Positions 3,001-12,969 are shown, numbered from the whole stretch's first letter. The stretch: DNA of 63,955 nt, filler included, from Bacteroidales bacterium (GCA_035389045.1; 7 parts of 7 records of this genome joined end to end with filler, not necessarily neighbours in it); one strand, 5' to 3'. Numbers: made by a program.

Positions 3001-6000
3001 GGGTATAAAAAACAAATAAACCATTAGTAATCAAAACAAAACGAAACACCTATGGAAAAAGAATTGAAATCACAGGGCAGATGCCTTTACTGTGATCAGA
3101 TGTTCATGCAAAAAGGAATAGGTAAACATCTGACCGGACACCTGACTGAAATGGAAAAAGCAGACAAGGACAAGCCCACTCAGGCCTACGTTCACATAGT
3201 AGTGGAGGCCTGGGAAATGTTTTACACCTCCTGGTAAGGGGCGATGCAGAAATGGTGGTCATTGATGGTTTTCTGAAAGACATCTGGCTTGAATGTTGCG
3301 GGCATATGAGCTGTTTCAGAAATACAAATTTTGAAATCAGTAAGAGCCAAAAGGTAGGAAATGTTTTTATGTCCCGTGCTAAAATAGTTCACGATTATGA
3401 TTTTGGAGATACTACGAGAGTGATGTTACACGGATTGAAAAGTTACCAGTTGAACCTGAAAGAAAAAACAATACTGCTCTCGCGAAACGAACCCTTAAAA
3501 ATCATGTGTTCCATTTGCGGAAAGAAACCGGCCGTAAACCTTTGCACAGCATGTAATCAGGAAGATTATGCGTTTTTCTGCAAATCCTGCTCAAAAAAAC
3601 ACGAAAAAAAATGTGAAGATTTTGCCAACTATGCCTGTATGCCGGTGGTAAACTCTCCGCGTATGGGTGTATGCGGCTAAGAAGGAGGTGTTATTGACAC
3701 CGCCAGGGACGGGGTGTATTATAGGGAGCAATGATCCGTGTCAGGTCTGTACCAAAAGAGTGGCTGAAAAACAAATGTTTTTCAGCCCCTCATCATTAAA
3801 AACCGGGTTTATTGAGATATCAATGCACGAGTTTGAGTATTTGGCATTTTGACTCTTTCAATCCAGTAAATTCAAGTTTAAAAGTATACATCCCCGCTGG
3901 ATAGTTTTTTGCAGCGAATACAACCGAGTGTTTTCCAATCTGCTGATTTTCATCAACAAGTATTGATACCAGCTCACCTAAGACATTGTAAACACATAAT
4001 TTCACCATTCCGTTTTCAGGTAATGTATAATTTATGTCTGCTTTCTCATTAAATGGGTTGGGAAAAGCTGTAAACGACAAACCGGTTTCTACGTAATCAC
4101 CCTGAACAAACACCTTAGGCATTAACAAATAGATACCCTCGTTTTCATCTCCGTACTGATTCCCGATCACACCTGTTCCGCTTAAAAGGAAATCAATGTT
4201 TCCGCTTTTCTGACCAAAAAGCTTATGGAAGCCCATGATGATCAGATCATCAGCAGCAGCCAAATCGAAATGATTGGTAGTAGCGTAAAGCACCCTGATT
4301 ACTCCTTTTTCGTCTGTTACCAGCAGGTCATTGTCTTCGGCAATGATTTCCTCATAGGATGGGTTTATCTTAATAATGCCGGTTTTATTAACAGCTTTGG
4401 GTACATACACCGTTTCAAGCCGGTACTGATCATAGGGATAAGTTATTTCCAATCCTAAAGCCGAGAAATCGTTCATCTTTGAACTTATTTTCAACGGAAT
4501 TTCAAAATAATATGGATCATTGGTTGTGATAAGCTCTCCGGACGTAACGATGAAATCATCCTTCAGTGATTTCAGCCCTACCCAGGTAATAAGTGAATCA
4601 CGGTACCGGCTGCTCGATGCATTGTAATCGCCATAACAAACGGTTCTTAGTTTCACATTCATATCTTCACCGGACATGTTAATCATAGTATCAATTACGG
4701 GCCAGTTACCTTTTGGCAAATTGTAAGTTGTAGTATATGGAGACACAATCTTTGTCTTTATCCTGGCAATATCGATGGTATTTATCGTTTTACTATTATT
4801 TACATCTGCTGCTCTTTTATAAATTGCCGAGAAACATCTGGACGGATCCTGATTAGTATCACTTCCCACAAAATATTTCAACAGGGAAACATCAATAGCG
4901 TTGACATCGTTCCCCCACTGCATGGTATCAGGTGTAAATTTATCATAAGACAAAATGTAATTGCCATTTAATATATTATTAAACTGATAATTGCCGGCTG
5001 CATCACTGGTATCTCTGGCTATTTCAGTACCCGCCGGATGGCTCTTTAATATCACAATCACATTATCTATAATATACTTCGGCGCATTATATGTTGGATA
5101 ATTGGGCGCCGGACTTCCGGCATTGGCTCTACCGGTATAACTTGTTTTTCCGCTGATCGTATGCCCGATAGAAATTTTAACGGAATCAATAGTAATACAG
5201 CCATTATTATTAACAGTCAATATATATGTAGTTGCCGTTAAAGGCGATGCCAGTGGTTGACAAATATCCGGATTGTCCAAACCTGTTGCAGGATACCAGG
5301 AGCACATTCCAGGGCCGTTATTTGAGTCACCAAGTGGTAAGGCAGTGCCTGTAAATATGTTATCTGCTCCTGCTTCAGCAGCAGGCATTGCAATTACAGT
5401 TATTGTTTTTACGGCAATGTTTATGCAACCGCCAATCAAAACTGTATAGGTGATATCCGAACTACCCACTGAAATACCTGTTACTTGTCCTGTTAATGAG
5501 CCAACTGATGCAACACCGGGATTTGAGCTTGTCCAGGTACCACCGTTTGAAGTTGACGTCCATAATACGGATGAACCTGAACATATTGGTGTTATACCTG
5601 TAATGATCTGGACAACCGGTGCAGTAATTGTAACTGTTTTTATAGCTGTATTTACGCAACCACCTACTGTAACAGAATAGGATATCTCTGATGTTCCAGA
5701 CCCAATCCCTGTGACGATACCTGATAATGAATCTACGGTGGCCACATTGGGTAAGGAGCTTGCCCAGTTTCCTCCGGTAGTAGTGCTCGTCCAAACCGCT
5801 GTTGAACCTGTGCATATCGGTGTGTTTCCTGTAATCGTCTGGGGTATCGGGGCTGTAATTGTTAAAGATCGGGTAGCTGTATTCACACAACCGCCTGTTG
5901 TTACCGAATACGTGATATGTGTGGTACCCGCTGCCATTCCCGTTACCTGACCTGTCGCAATATCCACTGTTGCAACTGCAGGTGCGGCGCTTACCCATAT

Positions 6001-12000: not shown

Positions 12001-12969
12001 GTCGGACCAGTATATGGACTGACAACCCGTCGCCGTGGTTTTATTGAGGAAATTCAATTTACAAAGAACCCCGTCAATGACCAGGCCGAAGGATTCGGCC
12101 CAGGCAAAGGAAATAGCACGGATGTTCCCGTAACTGGCTTGTGCCACCGTAACCCCGGTAACACCGGCAAACCAGTCTGTTGTGCTGATGTATTTCAGAT
12201 GCGTCGTATCATACCGTATGGTAAACTGAAAGCCCGAAATATCATCGGGGTTGAAACCAGAAATCGAAATATCAACCGTGGTATTGCTGCCCGGCAAAAT
12301 ATTTGTCTGCGTCTGAATAGTGGCTGTCTGTGAATTGGAAGTCAGCACTGTAACGATCAGAATGAACAACAAAATTATTTTTTTCATAGGTTTAAATTTT
12401 TGTATCATTTATTATATTTTAATGAATTAATTTCAGCACCGCAGATTTACATTCATTCATGCACATNNNNNNNNNNNNNNNNNNNNNNNNNNNNNNNNNN
12501 NNNNNNNNNNTTAATTAATTAANNNNNNNNNNNNNNNNNNNNNNNNNNNNNNNNNNNNNNNNNNNNGCGAGCTGGGTTCAGAACGTCGCGAGACAGTTCG
12601 GTCCCTATCTGTTGTGGGCGTTGGAAATTTGAGAGCACCTGACTCTAGTACGAGAGGACCGAGTCGGACAAGCCGCTAGTGTATCTGTTGTGGCGCCAGC
12701 TGCATTGCAGAGTAGCTATGCTTGGATGAGATAAGCGCTGAAAGCATCTAAGTGCGAAACTCAGCTCAAGATGAGATTTCCTTTAAGGATCGTGGAAGAT
12801 TACCACGTTGATAGGCTGCAGGTGTAAAGGCGGTAACGTCAAAGCCAAGCAGTACTAATTATCCGTAACTTTCTGTATGCTGGCTTTTCTTGATTAACCC
12901 TTTATTGTATTTTCTTTCCCATATGATCATACCATACCTAAGATATTATGGTGACTTTTGCGGTGGTGT

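Follow-up and report, generated by a model that had tools for sequence, protein, structure and literature searches.

Proteins exported by type IX secretion (through the T9SS) are usually viewed as being individually anchored or released. One gene in a 63,955-nucleotide stretch of DNA from a Bacteroidales bacterium (GCA_035389045.1; seven parts joined with filler, termed the window) raises the question of whether such cargoes may be held on the cell surface by one another. Its 2855-aa product begins with an array of cohesin modules and ends in a T9SS sorting domain, and an earlier note had read it as the leading member of a cellulosome-like scaffold. That reading stood with respect to the modules, the T9SS ends, the kinds of protein that bear them and the linkage of cohesin and dockerin genes but was altered for the giant itself, which carries a dockerin of its own and hence is not a plain anchoring scaffoldin. 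With belief and doubt in about equal measure, we propose that proteases and adhesins are tethered in a hierarchical, cellulosome-like system anchored through the T9SS. The genome encodes about fifty secreted surface proteins with these modules, which would probably serve to clip them together at the surface of the cell.

Domain architecture of the giant protein

The gene occupies positions 3820..12387 of the reverse strand (ORF translation and public gene call), with its stop codon at 3820-3822. Translation also gave a longer ORF of 2862 aa (P0001; 3820..12408, reverse strand) starting from an alternative upstream ATG at 12408. The public call is this ORF minus 7 residues, and the start of the giant was therefore placed at M8, at 12387; residue numbers below refer to P0001. 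Both the extent of the gene and the six N-terminal Pfam Cohesin stretches given in the earlier note were reproduced.

All of the features of the protein lie on the reverse strand. A probable signal peptide, MKKIILLFILIVTVLTSNS (12331..12387), was read by eye from the translation. Six tandem repeats of ~244 aa follow (7921..12330; Pfam and repeat comparison), with 52 to 84% mutual identity and each consisting of a cohesin and then an Ig_3/I-set domain, five stretches of which were reported by Pfam. The cohesins were located by a genome scan and local profiles, with the positions of modules 1 and 5 drawn from Pfam as well: module 1, of group a, spans residues 28-160 (11929..12327), module 2 residues 271-403 (11200..11598), module 3 residues 514-647 (10468..10869), module 4 residues 758-891 (9736..10137), module 5 residues 1003-1135 (9004..9402) and module 6 residues 1247-1380 (8269..8670). 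Over the whole protein the six Pfam Cohesin stretches totalled 162.5 bits (cut-off, 24.1), and single stretches scored 32.7 to 39.5 bits each in the genome scan. A spacer stalk of eleven 77-aa Big_2/NUP210-Ig-like repeats (Pfam; residues ~1493-2339, 5392..7932) separates this array from the C-terminal region. No CBM family was reported on P0001 by Pfam at E ≤ 1.

The C-terminal region forms a type-1 cassette of 387 aa as aligned (3823..4983). Directly ahead of the dockerin lies an SdrD_B/CarboxypepD_reg-like beta-sandwich (4924..5181), for which the Pfam match was partial (residues 2447-2490) and, at 22.5 bits, under the cut-off. No dockerin had been listed for the giant in the earlier note; a Dockerin_1 match was found at residues 2501-2554 (4747..4908; Pfam, loop pattern and structure model), scoring 22.9 bits on the whole protein, exactly the cut-off, and 30.0 bits as a stretch in a six-frame genome scan. 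A predicted cohesin-fold domain (cassette residues 144-296, 4096..4554; model and structure comparison) and a T9SS type A C-terminal sorting domain (CTD; 3823..4065) complete the cassette. The latter was matched by Por_Secre_tail (28.8 bits; cut-off, 27) and by TIGR04183 (23.2 bits; cut-off, 23), and on this sequence evidence the giant is T9SS type A cargo. A terminator-like hairpin (3762..3787), detected by a consensus scan only, is located 33 nt past the stop codon.

Contigs from three metatranscriptome-labelled runs (X2, X4 and X7) were identical to many parts of the gene. These matches were not taken as transcription, since libraries of this kind may contain DNA and an intergenic stretch close by had cover as well; parts of the gene left without cover were given no weight. 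A 363-base 'joint' at 4636-5000, where contigs diverged from the window, was rejected as a deletion and was taken for paralogous cassettes.

A conserved C-terminal cassette and its bearers

The same order of beta-sandwich, dockerin-like EF-hand pair, cohesin-fold domain and type A CTD, ~385 aa in all, recurs throughout the genome. Local profiles detected 48 cassette ORFs (39 type 1, 8 type 2 and 1 canonical) plus one type-1 fragment. The spacing was nearly constant: the dockerin ended 276 to 313 aa short of the C terminus in 40 of 42 dockerin ORFs, and in related genomes the stop codon was reached 381 to 417 aa past the cassette start in 67 of 68 loci. Mean column identity among 19 type-1 copies was 75%. 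The earlier division of the dockerins into two sequence types was upheld, the types being homologous over the full cassette (hhalign probability 99.2, E 3e-19). Distant relatives exhibited the same order, with SdrD_B-like (30/44) or CarboxypepD_reg-like (27/44) matches preceding the dockerin, Dockerin_1 itself in 27 and Por_Secre_tail in 38 of the 44.

Pfam analysis of 47 of the 48 cassette proteins indicated that the bearers are proteases and adhesin-like giants rather than glycoside hydrolases, as had been claimed: a glycoside hydrolase catalytic family was present in 0 of 47 (threshold E ≤ 1e-4, in one scan 1e-3), while seven were peptidases. Dockerin-bearing M4 peptidases do exist, numbering three and not two. 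CBM_2 was matched weakly (28.4 bits) in one cassette protein. Components of the export route are encoded, with SprA at 2707 bits, two PorU-type sortases at 1341 and 1148 bits and at least 150 CTD matches. The T9SS sorting domains reported previously were confirmed, a type A or B end being present on the cohesin-bearing proteins examined and on nearly all of the cassette proteins.

The structure of the cassette was predicted with a pLDDT of 83.3 and a pTM of 0.74, and the top Foldseek row for this model was 2w1n; the type-1 cassette profile had no match among PDB sequences at E ≤ 1. Fusion of a dockerin with a cohesin-fold domain in constant order and spacing, in 48 ORFs and at 67 of the relatives' 68 loci, suggests the main rival reading, which we regard as rather unlikely: within a single chain, the dockerin-like pair would lie against the cohesin-fold domain and create a rigid, Ca-stabilised pedestal or clasp beside the CTD. 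The cassette would then act in folding, T9SS passage or outer-membrane spacing, and the N-terminal cohesins would bind something else. Conservation spans the entire cassette as one unit and its order persists in the distant relatives, both as would be predicted for such a clasp, and the pTM of the three-domain model suggests fixed packing. Clusters of small look-alike proteins in the ESM Atlas, in which Dockerin_1 was assigned to 46% and Cohesin to 35% of members, point the same way as a lead only. The cis cohesin-fold domain of every dockerin could occupy the dockerin of the same chain, which would count against tethering. A complex prediction of cassette residues 1-300 with a group-a cohesin (ipSAE 0.00 in two runs without controls, in a design possibly biased towards cis packing) speaks neither for nor against binding.

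Identity of the cohesin and dockerin modules

The earlier count of 15 cohesin modules in eight proteins was too low, although their presence was not in doubt: the genome scan with Pfam Cohesin placed 20 stretches, spread across 9 ORFs, over the cut-off, and C50_2582 was added at 30 bits. At least 21 ORFs of the genome contain a cohesin. T9SS proteins with classical N-terminal cohesins comprise the giant (six modules), C26 (three), small cohesin-plus-CTD proteins and three cassette proteins, which combine N-terminal cohesins with a C-terminal type-1 cassette; C50_2582 has nothing beyond a cohesin and Por_Secre_tail. Besides group a, to which the giant's modules belong, cohesins were assigned to group b (C44_8054 and C39_24607), group c (C51_30007) and group d (C50_2582 and the N terminus of C7_28135). 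A protein of a related genome (G007:C17) has the layout of an N-terminal cohesin array and a C-terminal type-1 cassette. The group-a profile matched the solved structures 5nrm_A (E 8.5e-13) and 6kgc_A (E 6.2e-7), and 20 of its 23 rows at E ≤ 1 were cohesins.

The domain within the cassette was recognised by its predicted fold. Model residues 144-295 aligned to 6kgd_A (Z 11.2, rmsd 3.0, 131 of 146 residues), and the top structure matches listed were all cohesins, so that the modelled domain can be superposed on solved cohesins, with their nine-stranded jelly-roll. The Pfam Cohesin scan did not report this domain in the giant; equivalents in C8 and C5 scored 19.5 and 18.1 bits, both under the cut-off, and that of C51_24445 scored 51.1 bits. 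Profile similarity between the cassette and the N-terminal cohesins was weak (hhalign probability 7.8, E 0.0044), and local-profile matches at the corresponding site of the cassette, seen in 14 of 70 distant relatives, were weak too.

For the dockerins, the presence but not the number of the 16 Dockerin_1 matches in the earlier note was sustained, as the six-frame scan yielded 42 stretches at E ≤ 0.01, of which 41 were over the cut-off. A pattern check agreed with the statement that no segment has two canonical Ca loops. The first repeat was degenerate in all copies, with just the C-terminal half of the loop (..NAID) retained in every one. The second repeat formed a complete EF-type loop of 12 residues in all but one of the 39 type-1 copies (38/39) and of the 8 type-2 copies (7/8); in the giant this loop is DVNNSKTINTID. 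The cassette dockerins thus have only one intact loop and not the two duplicated Ca-binding EF-type loops, each with a helix after it, that characterise Dockerin_1. Both dockerin helices were present in the predicted models. In a Foldseek search with the dockerin model (pLDDT 72.6), all listed rows of 28 matches were dockerins, at E values of 0.7 to 9 with none ≤ 0.001; TM-scores by target length to single-dockerin chains were 0.45 to 0.68, at 16 to 25% identity.

Several of these results could be read as evidence for an absence of specific pairing. The dockerin-like module would then have a structural, Ca-binding role, the cohesin-like modules would be adhesin domains or beta-sandwich spacers of a generic kind, and the partnership implied by the domain names would not exist. 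Dockerin_1 scores were close to the cut-off (22.9 to 36 bits), one Ca loop was degenerate throughout, and Dockerin_1 also matched in a cohesin-poor control genome, that of B. thetaiotaomicron. Non-cellulosomal cohesin and dockerin modules without a known role are, moreover, reportedly widespread, according to Peer et al. in 2009. This reading is improbable: the fold and sequence matches were solely to genuine cohesins and dockerins, and it fails to account for the gene adjacency and matched distribution described below, in which given cohesin groups occur with given cassette types. The data support the cohesin and dockerin modules being real.

Gene adjacency and distribution in related genomes

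The earlier note had described one operon in which a dockerin gene was followed by a cohesin gene. This arrangement proved to be general for type-2 and canonical cassettes (9/9): all 8 type-2 genes and the canonical gene have, 2 to 45 nt away, a gene for a protein with a cohesin at its very N terminus. The cohesins of these neighbours belong to a single related group, in which a W and an E are invariant, and three of the proteins (C39_24607, C44_8054 and C51_30007) themselves carry a type-1 cassette at the C terminus. In some operons peptidases are paired with cohesin-CARDB proteins. As adjacent operons are paralogous (three triplets and two Kelch pairs), the number of independent cases is less than nine. 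No group-a cohesin gene was found beside a type-1 gene in this genome; in relatives, a 254-aa protein consisting of a signal peptide, a cohesin (37.7 bits) and Por_Secre_tail (36.7 bits) is encoded directly after a type-1 cassette gene.

The type-1 cassette and the group-a cohesin coincided in distribution: of 41 related genomes, 10 had both and the other 31 had neither. Their copy numbers covaried (Spearman 0.98, n = 10), with both also climbing with assembly size (rho 0.79 and 0.75). The eight of these genomes that could be placed on an rpoB tree formed one clade (99/98 support); G009 and G019 were left off, their assemblies having no rpoB. The co-occurrence (10/10 and 0/31) was, therefore, not treated as a set of independent events and may reflect a single one. 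The type-2 cassette was present in 5 of 41 genomes belonging to three separate rpoB lineages, and b/d cohesins were found in 5 of these 5; weaker b/d-like matches were also detected in five genomes without type 2.

A clasp acting solely within its own chain leaves three of these observations unaccounted for, namely the 9 of 9 type-2 or canonical genes beside genes for N-terminal cohesins, the minimal cohesin-plus-CTD proteins encoded directly after cassette genes and the joint rise in cohesin and cassette copy numbers.

Proposed mechanism of tethering

Under the tethering model, which gene adjacency and distribution support indirectly, the giant would be a type IX-secreted fibre within a genome-wide cohesin-dockerin system. 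After export the CTD would be removed, leaving the protein attached to the outer membrane or free of it. A cargo's dockerin would then bind an N-terminal cohesin of another cargo, probably with Ca2+, and about three specificities may exist among the dockerins. Type-2 dockerins would pair with b/d cohesins and the canonical one with group c, in each case encoded by the adjacent gene; type-1 dockerins would bind group-a cohesins, among them the giant's six. C39_24607, C44_8054 and C51_30007, which end in type-1 cassettes, would be adaptor scaffoldins. With six sockets and one plug of presumed matching type, the giant could link to its own copies or to C26, forming a network.

Polymerisation into a branched protein matrix is a further possibility given this combination of sockets and plug on one chain. 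In this extension, which we consider doubtful, the ~fifty T9SS cargoes are self-assembling blocks with three orthogonal specificities, joined from cargo to adaptor to giant in a matrix on and between cells (an 'adhesosome/proteosome'). Each block would consist of a plug, the dockerin, and a built-in socket-like domain, and a few would have true socket arrays.

Against tethering stand the degenerate first Ca loop, the giant's whole-protein dockerin score, the high Foldseek E values, the lack of a PDB match for the cassette profile and the weak profile similarity of cassette and N-terminal cohesins, together with the single type-1/group-a clade, the rise of both copy numbers with assembly size, the b/d-like matches in genomes that lack type 2, the paralogy of the adjacent operons and the separation of group-a from type-1 genes in this genome. 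The geometry of the giant is a further point against it, as its dockerin is at the membrane-anchoring end and its cohesins are at the far tip, so that docking on the same cell would need released cargo or bent fibres. The same domain order, with cohesins far from their own anchor and dockerins near theirs, would suit a glue between cells, in which cohesins at the tips of long fibres (the giant and C26) bind the membrane-proximal cassettes of adjacent cells from the same clade. In sludge this would lead to kin-specific aggregates or flocs, and not to enzymes being scaffolded on a single cell. Record titles and run labels place the organism and its relatives in activated sludge and digester assemblies, and sockets and a plug occur together on the giant. 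This alternative is, nonetheless, quite improbable: it derives purely from geometry, presupposes the same putative cohesin-dockerin binding as the tethering model and offers no explanation for operons that pair peptidases with cohesin-CARDB proteins.

Comparison with known systems

The proposed tethering system shares a number of features with the cellulosome of clostridia (CipA/ScaA-type): a multi-cohesin scaffoldin, many proteins with one dockerin in the C-terminal region, several apparent specificities, adaptor-like cohesin and dockerin proteins and small single-cohesin anchoring proteins. The fold and sequence matches of the modules are to clostridial type I and II cohesin-dockerin modules. 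In contrast to the cellulosome, glycoside hydrolases are absent from the 47 cassette proteins that were scanned and the giant bears no CBM, anchoring involves a T9SS CTD in a diderm and not SLH or sortase, and the dockerin has only one intact Ca loop and shares a conserved cassette with the cohesin-fold domain and CTD that come after it. Hence this is not a cellulosome in the strict sense of dockerin-bearing glycoside hydrolases and a scaffoldin with cohesins plus a CBM. Type II dockerins occur in an X-module-dockerin dyad, with a beta-sandwich directly before the dockerin. The SdrD_B/CarboxypepD_reg-like beta-sandwich occupies the same position here and may be analogous; unlike in the dyad, the dockerin has another beta-sandwich after it, namely the cohesin-fold domain.

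A search of the literature on Bacteroidota or T9SS cohesin-dockerin systems identified cases in Cloacimonadota and Chlorobiota and no others. For Cloacimonadota, the available part of Williams et al. 2021 (PMC8542988) infers peptidases that bear dockerins and a scaffoldin whose C-terminal domain is conserved; a T9SS-linked complex has thus already been inferred there, and the wider group was known to use the principle. The predicted cellulosome-like complex of Ca. Stygibacter, as covered in that part, also has dockerins on peptidases (S8 and C25) and was likewise inferred from MAGs alone, but belongs to another phylum and has dockerins on GH18 and GH57 and a scaffoldin with CBM2/CBM3. The dockerin-cohesin-CTD cassette, large paralogue expansion and gene-adjacent pairs are not described in the same portion of the paper. 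Pairing outside cellulose degradation, as proposed here, has precedents in NagH/NagJ of C. perfringens (PDB 2ozn, 2w1n) and, from the accessible text of bioRxiv 10.64898/2026.03.19.712371, in Chlorobiota Cag_2037/Cag_2038, whose partners are encoded by neighbouring genes and located on giant Ig-repeat proteins. Both are single pairs with other secretion routes (T1SS in the Chlorobiota, by that text), compared with ~48 dockerin bearers, at least 21 cohesin ORFs and T9SS here. The statement that Bacteroidetes genomes are without cohesins and dockerins, as it appears in the available section of Naas et al. 2018 (PMC5831590), is contradicted by the present family.

With its three types of dockerin, four groups of cohesin, binding partners predicted by neighbouring genes and minimal cohesin-plus-CTD proteins, the system lends itself unusually well to testing. 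Orthogonal Ca-dependent pairs exported by a Gram-negative route may also be of use in surface display. If tethering is correct, the cellulosome principle would have been put to use a second time and independently, here in a diderm and on proteases and adhesins. A branched matrix, if formed, would underlie surface organisation or floc formation in this sludge clade of Bacteroidales, and a plug-and-socket layer would, if true, represent a new level of organisation of the Bacteroidota surface proteome.

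RESULTS

Gene and domain organization. The window is made up of seven contigs with paired runs of 44 N between them (positions 12467 to 12566 and five further places), and the contig considered here occupies positions 1 to 12466 only. This 12,466-base contig belongs to a 4.46-Mb assembly (135 contigs, 96% complete, 41% GC). A single ORF was present at positions 3820 to 12408 on the minus strand; as the public gene call of 2,855 aa is this ORF without its first seven residues, the start was placed at 12387, bearing out the earlier note. A terminator-like hairpin was located 3′ of the stop, and the contig ended 58 bases upstream of the longest possible start. 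A Septu-type defence pair was detected at positions 659 to 2723 on the plus strand, comprising a 445-aa ATPase similar to PADLOC PtuA (E 4.9e-133) and an overlapping 252-aa ORF similar to PtuB (E 3.1e-84). Sequencing runs with matches to positions 3300 to 12466 were labelled activated sludge, anaerobic digester or wastewater; contigs from three metatranscriptome-labelled activated-sludge runs matched many pieces of the gene without differences, matches that do not in themselves prove transcription.

The encoded protein begins with a signal-peptide-like segment, followed by six tandem repeats of ∼244 aa (mutual identity, 52 to 84%), each a cohesin and then an Ig module, eleven 77-aa Big_2-like repeats, a partial SdrD_B-like beta-sandwich, a Dockerin_1 match at residues 2501 to 2554 and a C-terminal type A T9SS sorting domain (CTD). 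Pfam matched Cohesin in six stretches (162.5 bits) and Ig_3/I-set in five, while Dockerin_1 scored 22.9 bits, exactly level with the cut-off; in a six-frame genome scan, the same stretch reached 30.0 bits. The six cohesins reported earlier were recovered, but the dockerin on the same chain had been missed.

A repeated C-terminal cassette. The six-frame scan detected 20 Cohesin stretches in 9 ORFs and 41 Dockerin_1 stretches over the cut-off, indicating that the original observation was real but its counts (15 modules in 8 proteins and 16 dockerin proteins, respectively) too low. The Dockerin_1 match ended 276 to 313 aa ahead of the C terminus in 40 of 42 dockerin ORFs, and their tails aligned as one conserved unit of ∼385 aa, termed the cassette. 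Local profiles assigned 39 ORFs and a fragment to type 1, 8 to type 2 and 1 to a canonical type (C51_24445), in which an unambiguous Pfam cohesin (51 bits) directly follows the dockerin and precedes the CTD. Types 1 and 2 were homologous across the whole cassette (hhalign probability 99.2, E 3e-19). Copies cut by contig ends were observed on C84, C44 (3-1010), C123, C129 and C34 (3-2126). The ∼40-fold repetition probably fragments the assembly, and the true copy number may therefore be higher.

The second dockerin repeat contained a full 12-residue EF-type loop in 38/39 type-1 and 7/8 type-2 copies, while the first was degenerate in every copy of both types, which makes the module a divergent dockerin in which only one Ca loop is intact. 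A G-D-x-N-x-S motif was invariant in the linker that joins the dockerin to the cohesin-fold domain (window about 4600 to 4640; CYGDYNASS in the window protein, C.GDVNGSY in type 2) and resembles what is left of a third, isolated Ca loop. The window protein's cassette was modelled with AlphaFold2 on 94 sequences (pLDDT 83.3, pTM 0.74), which predicted a dockerin region of three helices followed by two beta-sandwiches. The first (cassette residues 144 to 295) superimposed on solved cohesins (Z 11.2, rmsd 3.0, 131 of 146 residues), its top structural matches all being cohesins, and the second corresponded to the CTD. By sequence profile, this internal domain bore only a faint likeness to the N-terminal cohesins (probability 7.8). 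Modelled alone (pLDDT 72.6), the dockerin part gave 28 Foldseek matches, of which those listed were all dockerins but with weak E values of 0.7 to 9. The fixed fusion of dockerin and cohesin-fold domain and the high pTM are compatible with a cis-only arrangement, in which the dockerin would be engaged by the cohesin-fold domain on the same chain and the cassette would form a rigid pedestal. This is the main rival to pairing between proteins, but we consider it rather unlikely; the gene adjacency does not fit it.

Adjacency of dockerin and cohesin genes. Each of the eight type-2 genes, and likewise the canonical gene, was separated by 2 to 45 nt from a gene whose product starts with a cohesin, extending the earlier report of one such operon. 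Three paralogous minus-strand triplets (C7:23261-37948, C57:209-22884 and C50:3-32617; L128, L129, L146, L147, L154, L159 and L194 to L198) encode, in this order, a LamG/GEVED giant (type 2), a protein of ∼1,940 aa with an N-terminal cohesin and 7 or 8 CARDB domains, and an M4 peptidase or SprB-repeat protein (type 2). Two pairs encode a Kelch/beta-helix protein with a type-2 cassette and then a multi-cohesin protein, and one pair comprises C51_24445 followed by C51_30007. As these operons are paralogous, the number of independent cases is below nine. The cohesins adjoining type-2 genes formed one related group (b/d). Three downstream multi-cohesin proteins (C39_24607, C44_8054 and C51_30007) terminated in type-1 cassettes, an architecture matching that of an adaptor scaffoldin; C50_2582 consisted of a cohesin and a CTD with no other part. 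In relatives, a 254-aa protein (signal peptide, CTD and a group-a cohesin, the window-protein type) was encoded directly 3′ of a type-1 cassette gene, and one related genome (G007) encoded an ortholog of the window fibre, in which four cohesins are combined with a type-1 cassette.

Distribution. Type-1 cassettes were detected in 10/41 related genomes, including 9/22 other genomes of the family and 0/18 from other families of the order. Group-a cohesins occurred in exactly the same 10 genomes, and copy numbers of the two were correlated (Spearman 0.98), both also following assembly size. The presence of cohesins and dockerins without any pairing is, in our judgement, improbable. Of the 10 positive genomes, the eight placeable on an rpoB tree formed one clade, and the co-occurrence may therefore reflect a single gain. 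Type-2 cassettes were found in 5/41 genomes from three separate lineages, with b/d cohesins in 5/5 and weaker b/d-like matches in five further genomes. Searching 1.84 billion representative proteins with the type-1 profile produced 81 matches at E≤1e-30, 115 at E≤1e-10 and 258 at E≤1e-3, with this genome supplying 13 of the best 80. Close copies, C-terminal every time, came from seven records titled uncultured Bacteroidales MAGs. Most of the weaker matches resembled type 2, frequently with a strong cohesin immediately upstream; among 44 scanned, Por_Secre_tail was present in 38, SdrD_B in 30 and Dockerin_1 in 27. The ESM Atlas clusters nearest to window 4063 to 4983 (minus strand) were small hypothetical proteins (265 to 355 aa) with Dockerin_1, Cohesin or both; the few taxon labels among them were mostly Uroviricota. 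As a lead only, phages may carry a dockerin-cohesin didomain.

Cargo and secretion. Pfam was run on 47 of the 48 cassette ORFs. Peptidases (C25, three M4, M14, M43 and one C39-like) were found alongside two Metallophos proteins, Laminin_G_3/GEVED giants, Kelch plus beta-helix, PKD_6, Ig_7, FG-GAP, Cleaved_Adhesin and CARDB proteins, and BNR and DUF5122 propellers. The earlier note had correctly linked dockerins to M4 metalloproteases but named two rather than three. No glycoside hydrolase catalytic family was detected in the 47 proteins, as previously proposed, and there was one weak CBM_2 match. The genome encodes SprA, two full-length PorU-type sortases in tandem (C13:24939-31800; 1,341 and 1,148 bits) and at least 150 type A CTDs, indicating that the cassette is carried by one part of an extensive T9SS secretome. 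A 6,434-aa protein (C26:29742-49043, L127) combined HYR domains with three group-a cohesins and a type B (CHU_C) sorting domain, and hence this cohesin type occurs on T9SS cargo of types A and B alike. Cell-to-cell adhesion as the function of these proteins seems to us slightly less probable even than an absence of pairing.

DISCUSSION

These cohesins and dockerins are genuinely related to the cellulosomal modules, the dockerins being divergent, but two defining features of cellulosomes, dockerin-bearing glycoside hydrolases and a CBM on the scaffoldin, were absent from the scanned cassette proteins and the window protein, respectively. The nearest described idea concerns Ca. Stygibacter (Cloacimonadota), for which a 3,755-aa scaffoldin with a conserved C-terminal domain, and dockerins on peptidases and GHs, were inferred from MAGs (PMC8542988). 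In Chlorobiota, a cohesin gene and a dockerin gene that lie side by side and encode giant proteins were reported (bioRxiv 10.64898/2026.03.19.712371), and a passage in Naas et al. 2018 (PMC5831590) states that Bacteroidetes genomes are without cohesins and dockerins. In searches of full-text literature, supplements aside, we found neither a T9SS-linked network of cohesins and dockerins in Bacteroidota nor a dockerin-cohesin-CTD cassette described.

Our best reading, held with middling confidence, is that of a T9SS-associated tethering system resembling a cellulosome; the earlier interpretation to this effect is plausible and has now gained genomic support, but is unproven and faces a serious cis-only rival. 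The domains, the cassette, the adjacency and the distributions are observed, and all binding, its specificities and the fate of the CTD are inferred. In this reading, cargo would be exported by T9SS. PorU removes the CTD of T9SS cargo, which is then fixed to the surface or released, and the same fate would apply here. Dockerins would then plug into the N-terminal cohesins of other cargo: type-2 and canonical dockerins into cohesins encoded next door, and type-1 dockerins, including those of the adaptors, into group-a cohesins, six of which are on the window protein.
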